Assembly: GCA_964613985.1 (NCBI GenBank)
Contig: CAZTJD010000002.1
Location: forward strand, 3,664-67,663
Length of the DNA: 64,000 nucleotides
From: an uncultured Anaerolineales bacterium
GTDB lineage: Bacteria; Chloroflexota; Anaerolineae; Anaerolineales; UBA11858
Reading direction: 5' to 3'
Both the position numbers and the translations under genes were made by a program. Of the stretch, positions 7,087-31,138 are shown piece after piece. The number at the start of each line of letters is the position of its first letter. Positions within the stretch are counted from its first letter, which is position 1. The notes below the pieces were generated by a model. The model was not told the origin of the DNA. It made no database searches and saw nothing but the letters and a program-made list of their open reading frames with translations.

Positions 7087-9612
7087 ATGTTAAAGAATAT
7101 TACTCGCTTAATAATCGGACTCCTGCTATTCGTAATCATCATTATCCTTTTCACGGCGATATTTGGTCCGGTTTGGACACATAAGACGGCTGAATATTCA
7201 TTTCCGCAAATCGATGGAGAGATCAAGCTGGCTGGCTTGGATGGGCCCGTGGAAATCTATCGAGATTCGATGGGGGTACCGCACATCTATGCCATGACAC
7301 AACATGATTTATTCTTCGCCCAGGGGTATGTCCACGCCCAAGATCGTTTCTGGCAGATGGATTTCTGGCGACACCAGGGAGCTGGTCGCTTGTCAGAACT
7401 TTTGGGTAAAAATTTGCTCGAAACCGATCGATTCCTGCGCACGATTGGGTGGGAGCGTGTTGCCCAGGAGGAATTACTGCTCCTGGATGCCGAATCACAG
7501 GCGATATTAGATTCTTATGCAGAAGGCGTCAACGCTTACCTGGAAGAAAATACTGGTAAAGCGTTAGCCCTGGAATACGCTTTTCTACCGATCCTTAACC
7601 GTGGTTACCAGCCAAAACCCTGGACAGCATTAAACACCATGACCTGGGCAAAAGCTATGGCGTGGGACCTTGGCGGCAATATGGATACCGAAATCAATCG
7701 AGCGCTGTTGTTCAAAATATTGAGTCTTGAACAGGTAGAACAATTATATCCGCCTTATCCTGATGACCGTCCTGTGATCGTAAACCATCCCCAGATCACA
7801 AAAGAAATAATGCCAATATCGCACTTTAACTCCGCTTTAATAGGCTCCATCCTGCCGGGGTTGGTTGAAGTCCAGGAAAAATTTTCTGGCATCGATATTA
7901 TAGCGGGGGGCAGCTCGGACGGGATCGGCTCCAATAGTTGGGTCATCTCTGGTGATTTGACAGATACTGGTATGCCGTACCTTGCCAACGATCCCCACCT
8001 TGGAGCTCAAATCCCTTCGATCTGGTATGAGGTGGGATTACACTGCATAACAAAAGGACCTGATTGCCAGGTGAATGTCACAGGGTTCTCATTTGCTGGT
8101 GCACCCGGGATCATCATTGGACATAACGATCGTATTGCCTGGGGATTCACCAATGTTGGTCCGGATGTGATGGACCTATACATTGAGAAAATCAATCCTG
8201 AGAACCCGAACCAATACGAGTTCCAAGGGAGCTGGGTGGATATGGAAATTATCACTGAAGAAATTCGGATAGCTGGTGGTGATCCCGTCCAACAAACGGT
8301 CCATCTGACTCGTCATGGTCCAATCATTACAGAGGTCTACGGGTTGGAGAATTTTGCACAAGAATCCAGCCTTGACTTACCAGAAAACTACGCAATTGCA
8401 CTCCGGTGGACCGCCCTGGAACCCTCCTGTATCTTCTGCGCAGTCTGGAAATTTGACAAGGCAAACAATTGGGAAGAATTCAGAGTCGCAGCTTCCCTGT
8501 TTGCTGTGCCCGCTCAAAACCTGGTCTTCGCAGATATTGAAGGCAATATAGGATATCAGACCCCAGGAAATATTCCCATCCGGACAGAAAGGCATGATGG
8601 CATGCTGCCGGTACCCGGTTGGACGGGAGAATACGAGTGGCTGGGTTATATCCCCTTTGAAGAACTGCCTTATACCTTCAACCCCATCGAGGGATATATT
8701 GTTACTGCAAACAATGCGGTGGTCGGGACTGAATACCCATACAGCATTTCTCGGCAATGGTCTTACGGTCAACGTGCCCAGGCAATCGTGGACATGGTGG
8801 AAAACACTCCTGGTCCTATCACCATCGACACCATCAAGGAAATGCAAGGGGATAATAGGATCCTGATTGCTGAAGACCTGCTTCCAGTGCTGATGAATAT
8901 CTCATTGGATGAAGAAACCCTGCAGGATGCTCGCAGCATCTTCACCGGATGGGACCACCAGATGGATATCGACTCTGCCCCAGGCACCTTGTTTGCTGTA
9001 TTTTGGAAGCACCTGCTATCTGCCACCTTTGAGGATGACTTACCGGAATCTCAATGGCCTAGTGGTGGGGATGACTGGATGGAGATCGTCCGACAGTTGA
9101 TCAATGAACCAGTCTCACCCTGGTGGGACAATCAGACTACAGTTGTGGTCGAATCTAGAGATGATATCTTCCACCAAGCTTTTAAGAGTGCGGTTTCAGA
9201 AATCCAAAAACTTCAAGGTAGAGACCCCGACGGTTGGACCTGGGGTGATTTGCATACCATCACCTTTGAGAATGCCGTGATGAGTAGCTTCCCAATCATC
9301 AAAAACGTTTTCAATCGAGGTCCCTTCCCCACCGCGGGAGGTAGCGCAATAGTGAATGCGACGGGATGGAGTACACTCCAGGGTTACCAGGTAAACCATG
9401 TCCCTTCCATGAGAATGATTGTTGACCTCAGCAACCTAAGTAACTCGTTGACCATGCACACCACCGGTCAATCTGGACATCCCTACCACCCTCATTATAT
9501 CGATATGGCAGACCCCTGGCGATTGATCCAATATTTCCCCATGTATTGGGAACGCAATGAAATCGAAACAAACGAAAGTGGTCATTTATCCCTGGTTCCT
9601 TTAGCCGAATAA
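7087..9612 (+). CDS. penicillin acylase (Ntn-hydrolase) family protein with N-terminal membrane anchor
   Basis: AGGAGG RBS, an N-terminal TM helix, a GSNSWVISG nucleophile-Ser context and a size of 841 aa. Confidence 0.85.
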   Translation: MLKNITRLIIGLLLFVIIIILFTAIFGPVWTHKTAEYSFPQIDGEIKLAGLDGPVEIYRDSMGVPHIYAMTQHDLFFAQGYVHAQDRFWQMDFWRHQGAGRLSELLGKNLLETDRFLRTIGWERVAQEELLLLDAESQAILDSYAEGVNAYLEENTGKALALEYAFLPILNRGYQPKPWTALNTMTWAKAMAWDLGGNMDTEINRALLFKILSLEQVEQLYPPYPDDRPVIVNHPQITKEIMPISHFNSALIGSILPGLVEVQEKFSGIDIIAGGSSDGIGSNSWVISGDLTDTGMPYLANDPHLGAQIPSIWYEVGLHCITKGPDCQVNVTGFSFAGAPGIIIGHNDRIAWGFTNVGPDVMDLYIEKINPENPNQYEFQGSWVDMEIITEEIRIAGGDPVQQTVHLTRHGPIITEVYGLENFAQESSLDLPENYAIALRWTALEPSCIFCAVWKFDKANNWEEFRVAASLFAVPAQNLVFADIEGNIGYQTPGNIPIRTERHDGMLPVPGWTGEYEWLGYIPFEELPYTFNPIEGYIVTANNAVVGTEYPYSISRQWSYGQRAQAIVDMVENTPGPITIDTIKEMQGDNRILIAEDLLPVLMNISLDEETLQDARSIFTGWDHQMDIDSAPGTLFAVFWKHLLSATFEDDLPESQWPSGGDDWMEIVRQLINEPVSPWWDNQTTVVVESRDDIFHQAFKSAVSEIQKLQGRDPDGWTWGDLHTITFENAVMSSFPIIKNVFNRGPFPTAGGSAIVNATGWSTLQGYQVNHVPSMRMIVDLSNLSNSLTMHTTGQSGHPYHPHYIDMADPWRLIQYFPMYWERNEIETNESGHLSLVPLAE

Positions 9613-18378: not shown

Positions 18379-19617
18379 ATGCTCCACATTGAACCGGATT
18401 TTATGGATCTGACGGTCGATCTTGACCCCCATACTTTCTGGAAAGAAAACCTGATTTGTACTAAATTAACCACCAAGAAGCCTCGCTGCGGTCTTCATTT
18501 CTCCCCCGATGACCACTGGCTATTCGAATTCATGGCGATCCCCTCCACTCTGCGCTACTACAATGAAAAAGCCTATCGCGATAGTTTACACCCCCAGGTT
18601 AACAAGATCACCGAAGAATACATTGGTTGCTCTTTTTTTGAGGAAGACACCTGGGAACACAACCCGAAACGGATTGAGAATCTGTTCGGCTGTAATTTTG
18701 AATACCACGATGGGCGTAAGCCCTGGCTCATACCGGTGACCACGGATCCGAAGGCGTTTTCTCGAATTTTAGACCGTGCCGAAAGCATAAACATGCAAAC
18801 CTGGGCTCTTCCAGTGCCATTCCTCAGGGAATGGGATGCTCGAAAGGATGCGGGAAAAGAGGTTCCCTTCTTGGGTACTGGTAGCCGCGGTCCGGTAACC
18901 ATCATGACCTCTGTACTGAATGCGGAAAAGATCTTCTTTTGGTATTATGACCATCCTGCGCTGATGAGACGTTTTTGAGATATCCTGGCTGAAAAAATGG
19001 TCGAGCTCAATACCATCCTACGAGTCTTCAGCGGTAATACCCAACCTGGGTGGTGGGTCACGGACGATAACTGCGCCTTGTTTAACCGAAAGCTATACCA
19101 GGAATATTGCGTGCCAGTTTTAGAGAAAGTACTTGATGCCATGGCACCTGGAGATGCTCCTCGCTATCAGCACTCCGATAGCGCCATGGGGCAACTGCTG
19201 GAAGACCAGTACGCTTTAGGAATTCGTGAAGTCAACTTTGGTCCAGAAGTCGCGGTTGCCTTGATTCGAGAGAAGATGCCAGACGCCATGATTCACGGTC
19301 ATGTACCCCCGTTTCTACTGCTTAATGGCGCTCCAGAAAAAATCAAGACCTGCATACTCGACAACTTTCGCGATGCGGGTCAAACTGGCGGCCTGGAGAT
19401 CACAACTGCTGGTTCCCTGGGCTGCCGGGACACAGGCGTCGGTCGTATGCGCTGGATGATGCAGGTTGTCCAGAAGCACTGCCGATATGAAGGAGCAACC
19501 CCCATGCCCAGAGATCAGGTAGATTCGCACCTGTTGGATCTGGACAGTCCCAATGTATTTCTATGCCACGACTGCCTGGATCGGTCTATCACAGAGGACA
19601 TGATTGCCTTCTTTTAA
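18379..19617 (+). CDS. uroporphyrinogen decarboxylase (URO-D) family protein, interrupted by an in-frame TGA at 18976-18978 (pseudogene or recoded gene)
   Basis: ORFs 18379..18978 and 18997..19617 share a frame and are separated by a single TGA. The joined sequence reads ...YYDHPALMRRF*DILAEKMVELN... with a URO-D/MtaA-like C-terminal half. Confidence 0.55.
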
Positions 19618-23890: not shown

Positions 23891-23897
23891 CTATCTG

Positions 23898-23968
<71 letters not shown>

Positions 23969-24049
23969 AAAAAAAATTACTGATCGTATCATGAAGATTG
24001 CCGATAACGATCAATCCACAACCTACAATCTACAATCAGCAATCTCTTG

Positions 24050-24121
24050 AGCGGGCGACGGGATTCGAACCCGTGGCCTTCTGCTTGGCAAGCAGACGTT
24101 ATACCACTTAACTACGCCCGC
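24050..24121 (-). tRNA. tRNA-Gly(GCC)
   Basis: Acceptor GCGGGCG/CGCCCGC, anticodon stem-loop TCTGC-TTGCCAA-GCAGA, T-loop TTCGAAT. Confidence 0.9.
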
Positions 24122-24141
24122 AAATCGGTCAAACCCGATAG

Positions 24142-24214
24142 TGCCGAGAGCCAGAATCGAACTGGCGACACCGCAATTTTCAGTCGCGTGCTCTACCAAC
24201 TGAGCTATCTCGGC
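24142..24214 (-). tRNA. tRNA-Phe(GAA)
   Basis: Acceptor GCCGAGA/TCTCGGC, D-arm GCTCAGTTGGTAGAGC, anticodon loop CTGAAAA, T-loop TTCGATT. Confidence 0.9.
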
Positions 24215-24360: not shown

Positions 24361-25653
24361 ATGTTAATTCTTGCAAACCTCTGGCAAACAACAAAAAAAA
24401 TCGCCTGTTTGGTATTCATCGTCCTGGCTGGCGTTATCTTATTACAACGTAGTGATGTCAAAATTGAGAACCAGCTAGAGAAAATAAGGTCCTTTACCAG
24501 GCAGATCGAGTTCGATTTCGTAACCTGGACTTTTGATGCCCTTGGAATCAAGTTGCAGCAAATGAGTCTGGGCACAGCGAATTATCTGCCTCAAGAAGAA
24601 CTTTCCAAGTTCGTCCTTGACTATCTGGCGCTCAATAACCAGATCCAACAGGTAGAGACTCAGATTTACGATATATACTCAAATCCAGTAATATCAGATC
24701 CCAAATCATCATCTACCCTTCTTCGGAAACAACTCCAAGATCTAAACATCCAAAGAGAGGCGCTTGCCCCGTTGGCTGAGTCGATTTTACAGGACCAGGT
24801 GAGCGAAATAATATCTGACCTTGGATTGACAATCCTTGGACAGTCAGTTCCTCCTGTTTTGTACCACATCAGTGCAGTGCCACGTGGGCTTGTGGTTTCC
24901 CCTAGAAATGTCATCCGTCAAGATGCCAATATCGCTATCGATCCCGAAATCACTATCGCAGGCATGGAAGCGCTTGAAAATGAGGTGGAAGAATCACTTG
25001 ACGTATCATCATTGGTCGTTGGCTTAGGAGGAATAGGATTGTATCCAACGATGGTCATGGAGACAAGCAATATTAATTGGTTAGCAGAGGTTGTATCCCA
25101 CGAGTGGGTGCACAATTTCCTAACCCTCAGACCACTCGGAGCGAGTTATAGCACCAGTCCTGAATTAAGGATAATCAATGAAACTGTTGCGAATCTTTCC
25201 GAAAAAGAGATCGGCGGGGCTGTGATCGAACAATTTTATCCAGGCTTTGTACCTCTGCCACCAACGCCTTCAACAGAAAACAGCGAAGAAAACGACCTTC
25301 CTCCAAAAACCCCTTCTTTTGATTTCAGATCAGAGATGCACGAAACCCGCTTGATGACTGATGAGCTCCTGTTGAAAGGAAGAATTAAAGAGGCAGAAGC
25401 TTATATGGAAGCACAACGACAGATGTTCTGGGAACATGGTTATCATATACGCAAGTTAAACCAGGCATACTTTGCCTTTTATGGTGCTTACGCAGACGAA
25501 CCAGGCGGCCACGCTGGAGCAACAGAAGATCCTATTGGTGATGCAGTGCGTAGACTTCGCGCCCAGAGTTCATCCCTCGCCGTCTTTCTTAACCGTATAT
25601 CCTGGATGTGGTCACTTGACCAGCTTATGAACGCAGTGGAAGCAGGAGAATAA
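24361..25653 (+). CDS. membrane-anchored hypothetical protein with HExxH zinc-metallopeptidase motif
   Basis: N-terminal TM helix and EVVSHEWVHNF (HExxH). I recognised no further family. Confidence 0.55.
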   Translation: MLILANLWQTTKKIACLVFIVLAGVILLQRSDVKIENQLEKIRSFTRQIEFDFVTWTFDALGIKLQQMSLGTANYLPQEELSKFVLDYLALNNQIQQVETQIYDIYSNPVISDPKSSSTLLRKQLQDLNIQREALAPLAESILQDQVSEIISDLGLTILGQSVPPVLYHISAVPRGLVVSPRNVIRQDANIAIDPEITIAGMEALENEVEESLDVSSLVVGLGGIGLYPTMVMETSNINWLAEVVSHEWVHNFLTLRPLGASYSTSPELRIINETVANLSEKEIGGAVIEQFYPGFVPLPPTPSTENSEENDLPPKTPSFDFRSEMHETRLMTDELLLKGRIKEAEAYMEAQRQMFWEHGYHIRKLNQAYFAFYGAYADEPGGHAGATEDPIGDAVRRLRAQSSSLAVFLNRISWMWSLDQLMNAVEAGE

Positions 25654-25747
25654 GGTTATTAGGAGGATCTTTAAGCAGAAATTGTGCAATGATAATAAAC
25701 TCTAATCCTGGTAAAATGAGCGGATATTGGCCAAATTTGGAGCAAAA

Positions 25748-27061
25748 ATGAGAAAAGGTTTATTCATCTTATCAGTATTGATCAGTCTCCTATCGAATGC
25801 CTGCAGCGGAATCCATGGGTATACGCCTAGGGTAACCACGAATACTCCATCAAGCACAGTCGTTGGAACAACAGTAACAGAACTTGCCGGACCCAGCCCA
25901 AATCAAGGGCCAGAAAGTGGAGCTGGTTCTGCGGTTCAGCCAATAAATGGTTTGATGAGTGAATGTACTCTGGTCAGCTCATCCACCAAGCAATCTTCAG
26001 GCCAGGCAAATATTTTTTTAATTTCTGAAGATGATTGGACTCTTGGACCAGATGATGCTGCAGTAACCATAATTGAGTACGGAGATTTCCAGTGACCATA
26101 CTGTGCCCAATCTGCTTCCGTGCTGAAGCAGCTCAAGAATCAGTTCCCGGATGATCTTCGAATTGTTTACCGCTATTTCCCTTTAGCCAGTATCCACGAT
26201 AAGGCTTTGTTAGCCTCTCAGGCCGCAGAAGCGGCGGGGCTACAGGACATGTTTTGGGAAATGCACGACTTTCTTTTTGAAAACCAAAAGGTTTGGTCCT
26301 CACTTACTGAGGACGAGTTCGAAACCTGGCTAGTGAACACGGCTGCCTACAGGATCCACCTGGACACTGAAAAGTTTGCAGTAGATTTAAAAAGCGAGGG
26401 AATCGTTTCGTATGTCCAGAAAACCTGGGAATATGGACAGTCCCTCGGCCTCCCGGGAACCCCTTTTTTTGTTCTTAACGGTTCCCCCTATAACGGACCT
26501 TTAGATGAATACAGCATCCAATCCATCATCCAGTTACAGGCATTGGAAGAAATCCAATACAGCGAATGCCCACCGGTCGTAATTGACCCACTTAAAAATT
26601 ATATTGCCACCATCCGGACAGAGAAAGGTGATATCGTAGTACAGTTATTCCCAGATATTGCCCCTCTGGCGGTCAATAGCTTTGTATTCCTGGCAAAAAA
26701 TGGCTGGTTTGATGGGGTAATATTCCACCGAGTACTCCCTGGATTTGTAGCCCAGGCAGGGGATCCAACTGGTACTGGCTTAGGTGGGCCAGGTTATGCC
26801 TTCAAAAATGAAACGACTCCCGATCTTGTCTTTGACCGGGAGGGCTTACTTGCCATGGCAAATGCCGGTCCGGATTCTAATGGCAGCCAGTTCTTTATCA
26901 CCTTGGGACCAGCCGAACATCTTAATGGAGCCTATACCATATTCGGTGAAGTCATTGAAGGAATGAAAGTTGTTAAAAATCTGACAGCACGAGATCCATC
27001 CCAGGGTTCTAATCTGCCACCCGGGGACATGATCATCACAATCACGATCGAAGAGAAATAA
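25748..27061 (+). CDS. predicted selenoprotein: DsbA-like thiol:disulfide oxidoreductase (UxxC) fused to cyclophilin-type peptidyl-prolyl isomerase, lipoprotein
   Basis: GGAG RBS and lipobox LLSNAC. An in-frame TGA at 26093-26095 gives IIEYGDFQ-U-PYCAQ, with a downstream hairpin. The DsbA-like body follows (FWEMHDFLFENQ, GTPFFVLNG), then cyclophilin motifs (FHRVLPGFVAQAGDP, NGSQFFIT). Confidence 0.8.
26112..26131 (+). promoter_or_regulatory. candidate bacterial SECIS hairpin
   Basis: CUGCUUC-CGUGCU-GAAGCAG is a perfect 7-bp stem. It starts 16 nt after the UGA, and the loop contains GU. Confidence 0.6.
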
Positions 27062-27131
27062 CCTACCCGAAAATCCAAGCTTCCCATATGAGATTCGCGG
27101 ATCATCCAAGGGTGCCAAAGAACCATAAGAT

Positions 27132-28502
27132 ATGATGCAGCAATCGTCAGTAAAAATGCCCCAAAACAAACCAAATCAGAAAGAACAATCTGTCCGTTGG
27201 CTTTCTATCTGGCAGCTTCTCCTCAGTCTTTTTGGTATATTGGTCTTTTGGGGCTTAGCCTTCACGTTGTTGCTGATGATATTACAGTCGACCATCAATG
27301 CACCAGGGTTGATGAGTGATTCAATCGCTCTGCTGCTGATGGTTGCAGGGTTCGCGTTTATAGGGGTTTTGATGATCCCTTCTGCGGTACTTTCCTCGCT
27401 CAGTTTATTTAATAAACCGGTGCAGGGCACATTCCGAATCCCCCGGCCTGCCTCCCTTTTTTTTCTCTTCACTGTGTTACTGGGTTTGGGATACCTGGCA
27501 GCGAAACAATCAAACATTGTTTGGGTCGTCCTTCCACCAATCCATGTAATTGCGATTGGGATCGCCATCCTATGGATGATCAAACTAGGGACTCGCGGCT
27601 TGCCGACAGGGTCAGCTCAACGCCAGTGGGGAATATTCAACCTGGGGTTGGTAGCCGCGCCTGTGCTTAGCCTGTTAATTGAATTTGTAGTAATTATTAT
27701 TGTCGGTTTTATGGGCATCGCCTACCTAGGACGTGAACCGGGTTTCTCTGCTGAGCTTTCCCAACTCTATCAGGGCTACCTGGCGAACCCGAATCTTTCT
27801 TTGGATACAATTATCACGACCCTGGAACCTTACCTAATGCAGCCTGTGGTAATTTATGTCGGATTGGTTGTTATCGCCTTGCTGGTACCGTTGATTGAGG
27901 AGACGATAAAACCTATTGGAGTATGGCTGCTTGCTGGACGCAAGCCCACACCAGCACATGGTTTTGCAGCCGGTGTGTTAAGTGGCGGAGGGTTTGCCTT
28001 GTTTGAAAACTTGACCCTTTCCGCAACTTCAGGGGAGGATTGGGCTCTGGTTGTTGCCTCCCGTATTGGAACAAGTATCATTCACATCATCACCACAGGA
28101 CTCACCGGTTGGGCTCTTGCCTCTGCATGGAGTCAGAAAAAATATCTTCGCCTTGGTGCATCCTTCCTCGCCGCTGTTGCTATCCATGCTTTGTGGAATG
28201 GACTTGTCATCCTTTCGATCGTGCCGGAATTTTTCCCTGGACTGAACAACTATCCAGATATTTTAGAGAATATCGGCCTTGCTTCTCCCCTCGGTTATCT
28301 ATTACTCTTGGTAGGTAGCTTCATTCTACTCTTCCGAGGCAATTATTCACTCAGAAATGCTATAATTCCGCCCGTTGTGGAACCAGAAATCTGGAAATCT
28401 CAGGATCCAGAAAATCACTTCTCAAAGCAAACCATTAAACCAATCCCGCCCAGGCTAGAGGAAGAAAGTGAAAGCACTACTGCGGTGGGAGAGGAAAAAT
28501 AG
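27132..28502 (+). CDS. PrsW-like intramembrane metalloprotease family protein
   Basis: Polytopic protein with an EETIKP motif, FALFEN and a HIITTGLTG His motif, as in PrsW-type proteases. Confidence 0.6.
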   Translation: MMQQSSVKMPQNKPNQKEQSVRWLSIWQLLLSLFGILVFWGLAFTLLLMILQSTINAPGLMSDSIALLLMVAGFAFIGVLMIPSAVLSSLSLFNKPVQGTFRIPRPASLFFLFTVLLGLGYLAAKQSNIVWVVLPPIHVIAIGIAILWMIKLGTRGLPTGSAQRQWGIFNLGLVAAPVLSLLIEFVVIIIVGFMGIAYLGREPGFSAELSQLYQGYLANPNLSLDTIITTLEPYLMQPVVIYVGLVVIALLVPLIEETIKPIGVWLLAGRKPTPAHGFAAGVLSGGGFALFENLTLSATSGEDWALVVASRIGTSIIHIITTGLTGWALASAWSQKKYLRLGASFLAAVAIHALWNGLVILSIVPEFFPGLNNYPDILENIGLASPLGYLLLLVGSFILLFRGNYSLRNAIIPPVVEPEIWKSQDPENHFSKQTIKPIPPRLEEESESTTAVGEEK

Positions 28503-28515
28503 GATTAACTAGAAA

Positions 28516-29172
28516 ATGGAAATCATCACCTATATTATTGAATTCGTCCTTCACCTGGATGAGCATCTGGCAACAATCATCGCCAATTATGGGACCTGGA
28601 CGTACGCAATTCTTTTCTTTGTAATTTTTATAGAAACTGGTTTTGTGGTCACCCCTTTCTTACCAGGTGATTCGCTTTTATTTGCAGCAGGTAGTTTTGC
28701 TGCCCTCGGCTCACTCGATCCCTGGGTAATTTTCGGGCTTATGGGATTTGCGGCTATCCTCGGGGATACGGTCAACTACTCGATCGGTAGCTATATTGGT
28801 GAACGTGCCTTCAGCGGTAATATCCGCTGGCTGAAGAAAGAGTACCTTGACCGCACTGAAGCATTTTACGAAAAACATGGCGGCAAGACGATCATTCTAG
28901 CCCGTTTCGTACCGATCATCCGTACATTTGCACCTTTTGTCGCCGGGGTCGGCTCGATGACTTATGGACATTTTATCGCCTACAATTTCATCGGAGGAAT
29001 CTCCTGGGTAGCGATATTCACCTTCTTGGGTTACTTTTTCGGGAACCTTCCCTTCGTAAAGAGGAATTTTGAACTGGTAATCTTCGCCATTATCTTCATC
29101 TCCCTGCTGCCACCGTTGTTTGAATATTTCAAAGCCCGCAAAGAAACCAAGATAAAAAACATAAAAGCATAA
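28516..29172 (+). CDS. DedA family membrane protein
   Basis: The [16 protein letters not shown] motif and a size of about 218 aa are typical of DedA/SNARE-associated proteins. Confidence 0.85.
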
Positions 29173-30454: not shown

Positions 30455-30652
30455 CTTGAACAACCGGTGATCTGAAACTTTTGTGTTTCACTGGCTAGAA
30501 TACCGACAATTCTGGAATTCAAGCCTAAGGGTTATTAAAATAAAATTGGTTGGCAACATTGAACTGCCATTAATCATTTTTCCACATAAATCTGCCTTGA
30601 TCAGCGTCAGATAATATTTGAAGGTCGCAGCTAAGAACAGGAGAATACAACA

Positions 30653-31138
30653 ATCACTAAAGTACAACTGGACACCCCAGCCCCTGATTTTACTCTTGAA
30701 GATTTCAACGGCCAAAAGGTGACACTATCCGATTTTAAAGGTCAGAAGCAGGTCTTGCTGGTCTTCAACCGCGGTTTCGTCTGACCGTTCTGCCGCCGGC
30801 ACATGGCGCAGTTGCGCCAGGATCATGACAAGTTTAAGGAAGTTGGGGCTGAGATCCTGGTCGTAGGCCCGGAAGATAGCGACACTTTTAAAAAATACTT
30901 CCATGAGAACGACCTACCGTTTTACGGTCTCCCCGACCCAAAACACAGCGTATTGAAGCTTTACGGTCAGGAGATCAAGTTATTTAAATTCGGCCGTATG
31001 CCGGCGATGGTCATCATCGACAAAGCGAGCATGGTACGTTTCGTGCACTACGGTCACGCCATGTCCGACATCCCTGAGAACGCAGAGGTGTTAGCCACCC
31101 TGGAAGCCCTACAGGGTGAAAGGGAAGATAGACAATAA
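30653..31138 (+). CDS. predicted selenoprotein: peroxiredoxin-like (AhpC/TSA/redoxin) protein with UxxC motif
   Basis: The frame is open from 30635. The translation is ...TPAPDFTLEDFNGQKVTLSDFKGQKQVLLVFNRGFV-U-PFCRRHMAQL..., with TGA at 30782-30784 on the redox Cys position and a GC hairpin 19 nt downstream. The 5' end is uncertain because there is no ATG/GTG/TTG upstream of the conserved N-terminus. ATC at 30653 lies 9 nt after AGGAG. Confidence 0.75.
30804..30819 (+). promoter_or_regulatory. candidate bacterial SECIS hairpin
   Basis: UGGCGC-AGUU-GCGCCA is a 6-bp GC-rich stem. The apical loop contains GU and begins 25 nt after the UGA. Confidence 0.55.

Follow-up and report, generated by a model that had tools for sequence, protein, structure and literature searches.

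A predicted selenocysteine-containing lipoprotein that joins DsbA-like and cyclophilin domains in an uncultured Anaerolineales bacterium

Introduction

When a TGA codon interrupts a reading frame exactly where related proteins have a catalytic cysteine, is it a defect, a genuine stop between two genes, or a codon for selenocysteine (Sec)? This question is raised by a locus in a 64,000-nucleotide stretch of DNA (hereafter the window) from an uncultured Anaerolineales bacterium (Chloroflexota; assembly GCA_964613985.1, contig CAZTJD010000002.1), where two open reading frames (ORFs), 25727..26095 and 26120..27061, share one frame and have TGA 26093-26095 as their sole separator. A sequence-only reading of the window had joined them into a single gene for a lipoprotein in which a DsbA-like domain, with Sec in its active site, is fused to a cyclophilin-type peptidyl-prolyl isomerase (PPIase), and had pointed to a hairpin downstream of the UGA as a candidate selenocysteine insertion sequence (SECIS); all of the features that it listed are present where it placed them. 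From the comparative analysis presented here, we conclude that the region 25748-27061 is very probably one gene, whose predicted product is a lipid-anchored extracytoplasmic DsbA-cyclophilin foldase with the active site U-P-Y-C, the UGA being read as Sec.

Thioredoxin-fold proteins with a UxxC motif are the commonest predicted bacterial selenoproteins, and DsbA-like (PF01323) and DsbG-like forms have been listed since 2004-2005 (PMC1088965; PMC13188914; PMC1794560). The DsbA-like family, discovered in the metagenome of the Sargasso Sea, was assigned to COG2761 (PMC1088965), and Sec-containing proteins or enzymes have been reported in other Chloroflexi (PMC1794560; PMC5736913). That UxxC DsbA-like selenoproteins form an established class, as the sequence-only reading had stated, is borne out both by the earlier surveys and by a 2026 catalogue (PMC13188914). 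The questions to be answered for the window are whether the UGA belongs to a gene of this kind, and whether the fusion to a cyclophilin domain has been described before.

Results

Conservation of the in-frame UGA

Translation from the ATG at 25748 through the TGA gives a product of 437 residues, ...AAVTIIEYGDFQ-[TGA]-PYCAQSASVLKQLK..., in which the local context of the stop is TIIEYGDFQ-[TGA]. A protein search returned thousands of homologs, and two groups are prominent among the best 120, which were analyzed. The full-length homologs have ~410-460 residues, are 50-62% identical and all carry C-P-x-C; the first cysteine of this CPxC stands in the TGA column in 17/17 and in 42/42 full-length homologs, and likewise in the DsbA-family proteins of the PDB. 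Alignment of the joined product thus places Cys opposite the TGA in each full-length homolog, and the assignment of the stop to the N-terminal catalytic cysteine of a DsbA-like CxxC stands. The other group comprises 66 of the 120, including every match of at least 65% identity, which are annotated as proteins of 305-316 residues starting just past the TGA site, as would be seen if a stop codon stood at this site in their genes too.

At the DNA level, the comparison covers 43 relatives (loci L001-L043) taken from contigs of one genome per species, which are metagenome-assembled genomes of Anaerolineales or other Chloroflexota except for L042, whose bin is labelled Propionivibrio. Their proteins are 54-69% identical to that of the window, and in-frame translation finds TGA at the identical codon in 34 of them, TGC or TGT in eight, and a divergent motif in L042. 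The motif of the TGA-bearing orthologs is ...(I/V)EY(S/G/A)D(F/Y)Q-*-P(Y/F)CA..., and the in-frame ORF upstream of it, which opens ~100-120 codons ahead of the TGA, encodes first a signal peptide and a canonical lipobox. Conservation of the protein is continuous across the in-frame stop, and downstream of it there is strong purifying selection (78 invariant columns). The gene order is the same, on the same strand, for Sec and Cys forms alike: an HExxH protein, the DsbA-cyclophilin gene, a PrsW-like intramembrane protease and a DedA/VTT protein. Because they share this neighborhood, the Sec and Cys forms are orthologs of one gene; and because the TGA is conserved in 34/43 with a signal peptide and lipobox in frame upstream, we are dealing with one gene and not two. 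The conserved TGA, the upstream signal peptide and lipobox, and the shared neighborhood together exclude an error of sequencing, a pseudogene of recent origin and the annotation as two genes.

In a neighbor-joining tree, the Sec forms occupy one large clade and the Cys forms are basal, with a few nested (L010, L034); this topology would fit a Sec state that has long prevailed in a large clade of the Anaerolineales, with occasional switches between Sec and Cys.

Two further sequences, JGI Ga0307444_1019256 and Logan SRR8557365_1843492, are base-identical to the window over 25991-26160, TGA included, and are a weak independent confirmation of it, since they possibly derive from the same reads or the same sample. 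These short contigs (L169 and L170, from JGI 3300031360 and Logan SRR8557365, produced by different pipelines) both stop at window base 25991, a shared end that lies ~20 nt before an A/T-rich run.

A covarying hairpin downstream of the UGA

The hairpin at 26112-26131 lies inside the coding region, 16 nt beyond the UGA. It is the structure of lowest free energy predicted for its region, with -8.4 kcal/mol when folded alone. A published model of bacterial SECIS (bSECIS) elements describes a loop of 3-9 nt with G among its first two positions, a stem of 4-16 bp, a UGA-to-loop distance of 16-37 nt and a minimum free energy of at most -7.5 kcal/mol (PMC13188914). All of these ranges include the window hairpin, with its loop of 6 nt (G at position 2, then U), its stem of 7 bp, its spacing of 23 nt and its folding energy; the SECIS-like geometry that the sequence-only reading had attributed to it, down to the GU of the loop, is therefore accurate.

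The comparison of relatives is more informative. For this we took 66 nt of each sequence, starting in register at the TGA or Cys codon, and aligned the 35 TGA sequences, that is, the window and 34 orthologs (alignment A2). The hairpin occurs at one position in every TGA sequence, with 7/7 pairs in 34 of the 35 (the window and 33 orthologs) and 6/7 in the remaining one; merely 2-4 of the seven pairs can form in the eight Cys orthologs. Over the TGA sequences, 99.5% of the cells are paired, as against 22-57% in slid controls, in which the 3' arm was displaced by 1-3 columns. Compensatory double changes are seen in six of the seven pairs, and in 0/500 shuffles were the observed values equaled. 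The stem appears in the variants CUGCUUC/GAAGCAG, CUGCGCU/AGCGCAG, UUGCGCC/GGCGCAA, UUGUGCC/GGCACAA, UUGCUCC/GGAGCAA and UCGCUCC/GGAGCGA, and its compensatory changes switch the encoded residues between Ser..Lys, Leu..Ala, Pro..Glu and Pro..Ala. The loop bases C27, G28, U29, G30 and U32 are invariant, including the third codon positions of a Pro (C27) and a Val (G30) codon. Since the covariation alters residues and third positions are held invariant, selection must act on the RNA, beyond the peptide alone. These counts come from related sequences, so that the events are phylogenetically non-independent, a concern that is addressed by the slid controls and by the clean split between TGA and Cys forms. 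Folding thus returns the predicted hairpin, and the hairpin both accompanies the TGA and covaries.

Domains and invariant residues of the joined product

When Cys is substituted at the TGA, Pfam recognizes Thioredoxin_4 (PF13462; 73.2 bits, cut-off 23.2) at residues 95-262 and, inside this DsbA-like region, DSBA (PF01323; 53.1 bits, cut-off 25.6) at residues 107-250. The closest PDB relatives of the redox domain are Bacillus subtilis BdbD (3eu3), 3gyk, Corynebacterium diphtheriae MdbA (4pwo) and Staphylococcus aureus DsbA (3bci), and U116-P-Y-C119 aligns with the CxxC of 3gyk and BdbD. Two further cysteines, Cys73 and Cys274, are invariant (Table 1), and a structural disulfide between them may tie the N-terminal strand to the interdomain linker.

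The C-terminal part is matched by Pro_isomerase (PF00160; 145.9 bits, cut-off 21.7) at residues 288-419. Its top PDB match is Mycobacterium tuberculosis PpiA (1w74; E 4e-41), with FHRV..GF.AQ.GDP and MANAGP..NGSQFFIT conserved, and Foldseek gives a TM-score of ~0.8 to many cyclophilins. Two invariant segments, FHR328VLPGF333VAQ336 and MAN372AGPDSNGSQFF383, can be aligned to M. tuberculosis PpiA and to PPIL1. Of the cyclophilin catalytic set in human CypA numbering (Arg55, Phe60, Gln63, Asn102, Phe113 and His126), the Arg, Phe, Gln, Asn and Phe are all invariant here; the counterpart of His126 is Tyr396, and that of Trp121 is His, as in M. tuberculosis PpiA.

An AlphaFold model of the homolog P0012, a Cys form that is 58% identical (mean predicted local distance difference test score, pLDDT, 83.5; predicted template modeling score 0.74), has a disordered tether, then a confident DsbA domain and then the cyclophilin domain. 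Strands 95-141 and 238-246 surround helices 151-231 in this model with pLDDT >90, an arrangement that corresponds to a thioredoxin fold into which a helical domain is inserted.

A second UxxC gene in the window

When the two strands of the window were scanned for in-frame TGA codons, only two were found in real gene frames with redox motifs, at 26093 and at 30782. The latter, 4.7 kb from the DsbA-cyclophilin TGA, lies in an AhpC/TSA/ResA-like (Prx-like) gene that reads ...LLVFNRGFV-[TGA 30782-30784]-PFCRRH... and ends at 31138. Alignment to the PDB puts this TGA on the first Cys of the ResA CxxC, a hairpin UGGCGC-AGUU-GCGCCA follows at 30804-30819, and all of the metagenomic relatives examined (76/76) have both the TGA and an invariant AUGGCGCAGUUGCGCC hairpin. 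Database homologs have, at the TGA column, Cys, a truncation at that point, or 'W'. The nearest NCBIfam model is that of a SelL-related redox protein, NF040769 (88 bits against a cut-off of 120), and no synteny of this gene with the DsbA-cyclophilin gene was found in other genomes. Because the window contains this second selenoprotein gene, the genome very probably decodes Sec. A genome-wide reassignment of UGA was also considered and is rejected, since TGA is the ordinary stop of 9/45 window genes.

Seven full-length Prx-like homologs (P0121, P0122, P0124, P0125, P0127, P0130 and P0139) have Trp in the Sec column (NRGFVWPFC). This is most likely an artefact of gene calling with code 4 on short contigs, which hides selenoproteins as Trp variants. 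In the list of window ORFs, the Prx-like gene is present only as a 111-residue tail. Its start is unusual as well: all the relatives have ATG where the window has ATC (30653-30655), 9 nt after a GGAG at 30640-30643, and ATG, GTG and TTG are absent between the upstream stop and the conserved N-terminus. The ATC is either a rare AUC start or a lost start codon.

Genomic context

The features of the locus and of its surroundings are collected in Table 1. The order of the genes from 24361 to 29172, which is conserved in Anaerolineales, suggests a cell-envelope module. In L001, the locus of the closest genome, the tRNA cluster upstream of the DsbA-cyclophilin gene recurs at the same relative place (7705-8040). 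A URO-D/MtaA-CmuA-like gene that is also split by an in-frame TGA was examined as a third selenoprotein and rejected: the TGA column is occupied in its homologs by R, R, R, C, F, V, F and S, and no hairpin follows. Not Sec but a nonsense mutation (CGA to TGA), or else an error, is the probable origin of this TGA.

Table 1. Coordinates of the DsbA-cyclophilin gene, its predicted elements and other features of the window
Feature	Position	Strand	Basis or remark
Predicted DsbA-cyclophilin selenolipoprotein gene, complete coding sequence	25748..27061	+	437 residues with Sec116; stop TAA 27059-27061; translation, Pfam, end-to-end alignment to full-length Cys homologs
Putative ribosome-binding site GGAG	25739..25742	+	5 nt 5' of ATG 25748, read from sequence
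Predicted signal peptide ending at lipobox Cys19 (MRKGLFILSVLISLLSNAC)	25748..25804	+	Translation; Cys19 conserved in at least 90% of homologs
Thr/Ser/Pro/Gly-rich low-complexity tether, residues ~20-71	25805..25960	+	Not conserved in alignment; P0012 model residues 20-67 have pLDDT <50
Cys73, N-terminal of DsbA domain	25964..25966	+	Invariant in 43 sequences; possible partner of Cys274
DsbA-like thioredoxin-fold domain, residues 95-262	26030..26533	+	Pfam PF13462, PF01323; PDB relatives
In-frame UGA, codon 116, N-terminal nucleophile of U-P-Y-C (26093-26104)	26093..26095	+	First Cys of CPxC in homologs; TGA in 34/43 relatives
Predicted bacterial SECIS hairpin CUGCUUC-CGUGCU-GAAGCAG	26112..26131	+	Stem 26112-26118/26125-26131 (7 bp), loop 26119-26124 (6 nt)
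Thr238-Pro239, cis-proline loop	26459..26464	+	Invariant; aligns with GTP of 3gyk and TP of BdbD
Cys274, DsbA-cyclophilin linker	26567..26569	+	Invariant in 43 sequences
Cyclophilin-type peptidyl-prolyl isomerase domain, residues 288-419	26609..27004	+	Pfam PF00160, PDB, Foldseek
Prx-like/ResA-like thioredoxin-fold UxxC gene, second selenoprotein gene	30653..31138	+	TGA 30782-30784, hairpin 30804-30819
430-residue protein, no Pfam match, HEWVH motif	24361-25653	+	Found in 16/43 loci
PrsW-like intramembrane protease	27132-28502	+	Found in 32/43 loci
DedA/VTT protein	28516-29172	+	Found in 36/43 loci
tRNA-Cys(GCA), tRNA-Gly(GCC), tRNA-Phe(GAA) cluster	23897-24214	-	~1.5 kb upstream of DsbA-cyclophilin gene
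URO-D/MtaA-CmuA-like gene split by in-frame TGA 18976-18978 (RRF*DIL)	18379-19617	+	

Discussion

Several observations weigh against the reading of this locus as a Sec-containing lipoprotein. As a single sequence, the hairpin is no more stable than chance (z-score of -0.7 against shuffles), and hairpins that satisfy a loose bSECIS description follow 5-6% of all window positions, the same as for all TGA triplets; because of these two results, the hairpin alone is not counted as evidence, and its significance rests on the comparative data only. No Rfam SECIS family was matched, either at gathering thresholds over the whole window or at E up to 10 over 25900-26300; the one match obtained, to a small nucleolar RNA, is due to chance. 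No tRNA-Sec was detected by ARAGORN in the 64-kb window (four tRNAs), in the 43 related loci or in the ~1.4 Mb of related loci in all, tblastn with E. coli SelA, SelB and SelD returned nothing from the window and the same ~1.4 Mb, and Pfam scans of the 50 window ORFs revealed no sel genes. Near the gene, no DsbB, VKOR or CcdA redox partner was identified, and the structure model is that of a Cys homolog, P0012, which serves as a proxy for the window protein. Finally, the architecture proposed by the sequence-only reading is upheld by Pfam for both domains, and for the lipobox only in part: the N-terminus of the window protein has a hydrophobic stretch and Cys19, but its LSNAC does not conform to L-[AST]-[GA]-C, the canonical form that nearly all orthologs have at the equivalent place (LAAC, LAGC, LSGC and similar). 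What doubt remains about the Sec reading concerns mostly the Sec machinery.

How well do other explanations account for the same observations? A single base separates TGA from TGC and TGT, and the window does include one apparent true nonsense mutant, the URO-D-like gene with TGA 18976. It could therefore be imagined that sequencing or assembly had introduced the TGA in error, leaving an artefact, or that a Cys codon had recently mutated to it, leaving a pseudogene. The probability of this is negligible: the TGA recurs at the same codon in 34/43 species-level genomes whose proteins are only 54-69% identical, it is present in two further assemblies of the same sequence, purifying selection continues past it, and the covarying hairpin tracks it. 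The public annotation instead recognizes two genes: the first, for a small N-terminal lipoprotein, would stop at TGA 26095, and the second, for a 'cyclophilin' of 313 residues, would begin at GTG 26120. Gene callers produce precisely this split, and more than half of the best homologs (66/120) are annotated at the corresponding length; it is nonetheless highly improbable, as it would break up the thioredoxin fold, separating strand beta-1 from the CxxC helix, leave the 313-residue piece with neither active site nor signal peptide, and start it within the hairpin loop at a GTG that has no ribosome-binding site. Moreover, conservation is unbroken across the stop, and the possibility that close homologs are truly two genes, which the sequence-only reading had itself raised, is answered by the Cys orthologs in the same neighborhood, which are single ORFs of ~430 residues.

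A more subtle alternative is that the UGA is read through, but not as Sec. It is established that the Sec pathway of bacteria can place Cys at UGA if selenium is limiting, and that read-through can be stimulated by stem-loops. The residue could thus be Cys or Trp delivered by a near-cognate or suppressor tRNA, or, in a cell short of selenium, Cys delivered by the Sec machinery, the hairpin being a read-through stimulator of a general kind. The failure to find the Sec machinery in the window and the ~1.4 Mb of related loci is in keeping with this, as are the several Prx-like homologs translated with Trp at the UGA, if these are not, most simply, the code-4 artefact. Against it, the UGA falls exactly on the redox-active cysteine, the signature of a Sec/Cys pair; the geometry of the hairpin and the G-U of its loop match the SelB-dependent bSECIS model; a second gene with the same signature is present in the window; TGA ends 9/45 ordinary genes; and Trp or Gly as nucleophile would inactivate a DsbA site. 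We regard read-through without Sec as unlikely, though it is to be taken more seriously than the other alternatives. The hairpin could also be a mere by-product of amino-acid conservation (A-P-V-L/M-A/E-Q) and no RNA element at all, for it lies within a conserved segment of the protein, and its consensus is common to many close relatives whose counts are phylogenetically non-independent. However, its pairs change jointly in ways that alter residues (GCU UCC..AAG CAG, GCG CUC..GCG CAG, GCU CCC..GAG CAA, GUG CCC..GCA CAA), the third positions of the Pro (C27) and Val (G30) codons in the loop do not vary, and Cys orthologs of similar peptide (for example L029, APVLKQ) form just 4/7 pairs. There is very little chance that this explanation is correct. 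Insertion of Sec at the UGA, directed by the hairpin, has strong support from the comparison of relatives and is, with high probability, the correct reading.

How does the predicted protein relate to known selenoproteins? The nearest NCBIfam family is NF041057, 'Rcas_1661 family thioredoxin-like (seleno)lipoprotein', which was named after a gene of the Chloroflexi (Roseiflexus) and is the 'DsbG-like protein' (UxxC) of PMC13188914. It too is a DsbA/thioredoxin-like lipoprotein with Sec or Cys first in its CxxC, and positions 3-234 of its 247-position profile can be aligned with residues 10-251 of the window protein. However, NF041057 is a single domain of ~247 residues, whereas the window protein has 437, adding a C-terminal cyclophilin domain of ~150 residues and two extra invariant cysteines; this, and a score of 77.1 bits against a curated cut-off of 190, mean that the window protein is not a member. 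The DsbA-like selenoprotein form 1 (PF01323, UxxC; Sargasso Sea, PMC1088965; PMC13188914 Table 1) is alike in its DsbA-like fold, in the Sec that comes first in UxxC, in a SECIS placed directly downstream within the coding region, and in having widespread Cys homologs. The window domain differs from it by matching PF13462 best and by resembling the extracytoplasmic DsbAs of the BdbD/MdbA type, and the window protein by its predicted lipid anchor and its fusion to a PPIase.

The Cys DsbA-cyclophilin fusions of the Chloroflexota share with the window protein its architecture, length (~410-460 residues), lipobox, invariant residues and neighborhood at 50-62% identity; they have TGC or TGT in place of TGA and are without the hairpin. 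Such Cys fusions are common, and IMG annotates them automatically as 'cyclophilin family peptidyl-prolyl cis-trans isomerase/protein-disulfide isomerase'. Among solved structures, the closest (BdbD, MdbA and S. aureus DsbA) align at the CxxC and the cis-Pro; all are Cys proteins, none is fused to a PPIase, and their similarity to the window domain is modest (E ~1e-13 to 1e-9). All three belong to bacteria that have no classical periplasm, where they are tethered to the membrane and oxidize exported proteins. The Prx-like thiol:disulfide oxidoreductase selenoproteins (PF00578, UxxC), which include the second gene of the window, also combine a thioredoxin-fold UxxC with a hairpin inside the ORF; they differ in belonging to an AhpC/TSA/ResA-like subfamily with no signal peptide seen, no PPIase domain and an unrelated hairpin sequence.

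The 2026 catalogue, with 119 families and subfamilies and with architectures counted separately, holds no entry with a cyclophilin or PPIase domain (PMC13188914), and no relevant report of a DsbA-cyclophilin selenoprotein emerged from searches of the literature, in agreement with the earlier impression that the fusion is not a described selenoprotein. An earlier survey may have counted such genes under 'DsbA-like'. What is new is the architecture, a selenolipoprotein that joins DsbA to cyclophilin; the mechanism of Sec insertion is conventional and like that of other bacterial UxxC selenoproteins. With moderate confidence, we propose that these genes form an uncatalogued selenoprotein family, the first with a prolyl isomerase domain, in which a tethered foldase, conserved in a large clade of the Anaerolineales, uses a selenenylsulfide instead of a disulfide, so that envelope folding would depend on the supply of selenium. 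Public databases would then list this family, consistently and wrongly, as a 'cyclophilin' of 313 residues.

A plausible course of events can be outlined from the conservation of the RNA and from what is known of Sec insertion in bacteria. The ribosome arriving at UGA116 would encounter the in-ORF hairpin (26112-26131) bound by SelB-GTP-Sec-tRNA(Sec); Sec would be inserted at position 116, and 321 further codons would then be translated. The protein would be exported, lipidated on Cys19 and held at the outer face of the cytoplasmic membrane by its disordered tether of ~50 residues. There, the Sec116-Cys119 selenenylsulfide of the DsbA-like domain could exchange with the cysteines of unfolded exported proteins, and the fused cyclophilin domain could isomerize prolyl bonds of the same clients, so that two slow steps in folding, disulfide chemistry and proline isomerization, would be united in one tethered enzyme. 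Selenocysteine has a low pKa and is both a strong nucleophile and a good leaving group; because of this chemistry, the Sec form is expected to exchange faster than the Cys form. Whether the predicted enzyme acts chiefly as an oxidant, an isomerase or a reductant cannot be said from its sequence.

The locus adds a lipoprotein-DsbA(UxxC)-cyclophilin architecture to the prokaryotic selenoproteins and places Sec in a predicted extracytoplasmic catalyst of protein folding, while our understanding of Sec decoding itself is unchanged. It also exposes an annotation error, since 66 of the 120 best relatives have been cut to the piece that follows the UGA and thereby lack the active site as well as the signal peptide and the lipid anchor. 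With a family model of its own, the gene would be annotated correctly across Anaerolineales genomes. The Sec and Cys orthologs that occupy the same neighborhood constitute a natural experiment on what Sec contributes to DsbA-type chemistry. The Anaerolineales are abundant in sediments and digesters and, if our reading of this gene is true, a selenium requirement would be predicted for envelope biogenesis in this abundant, poorly cultured lineage.

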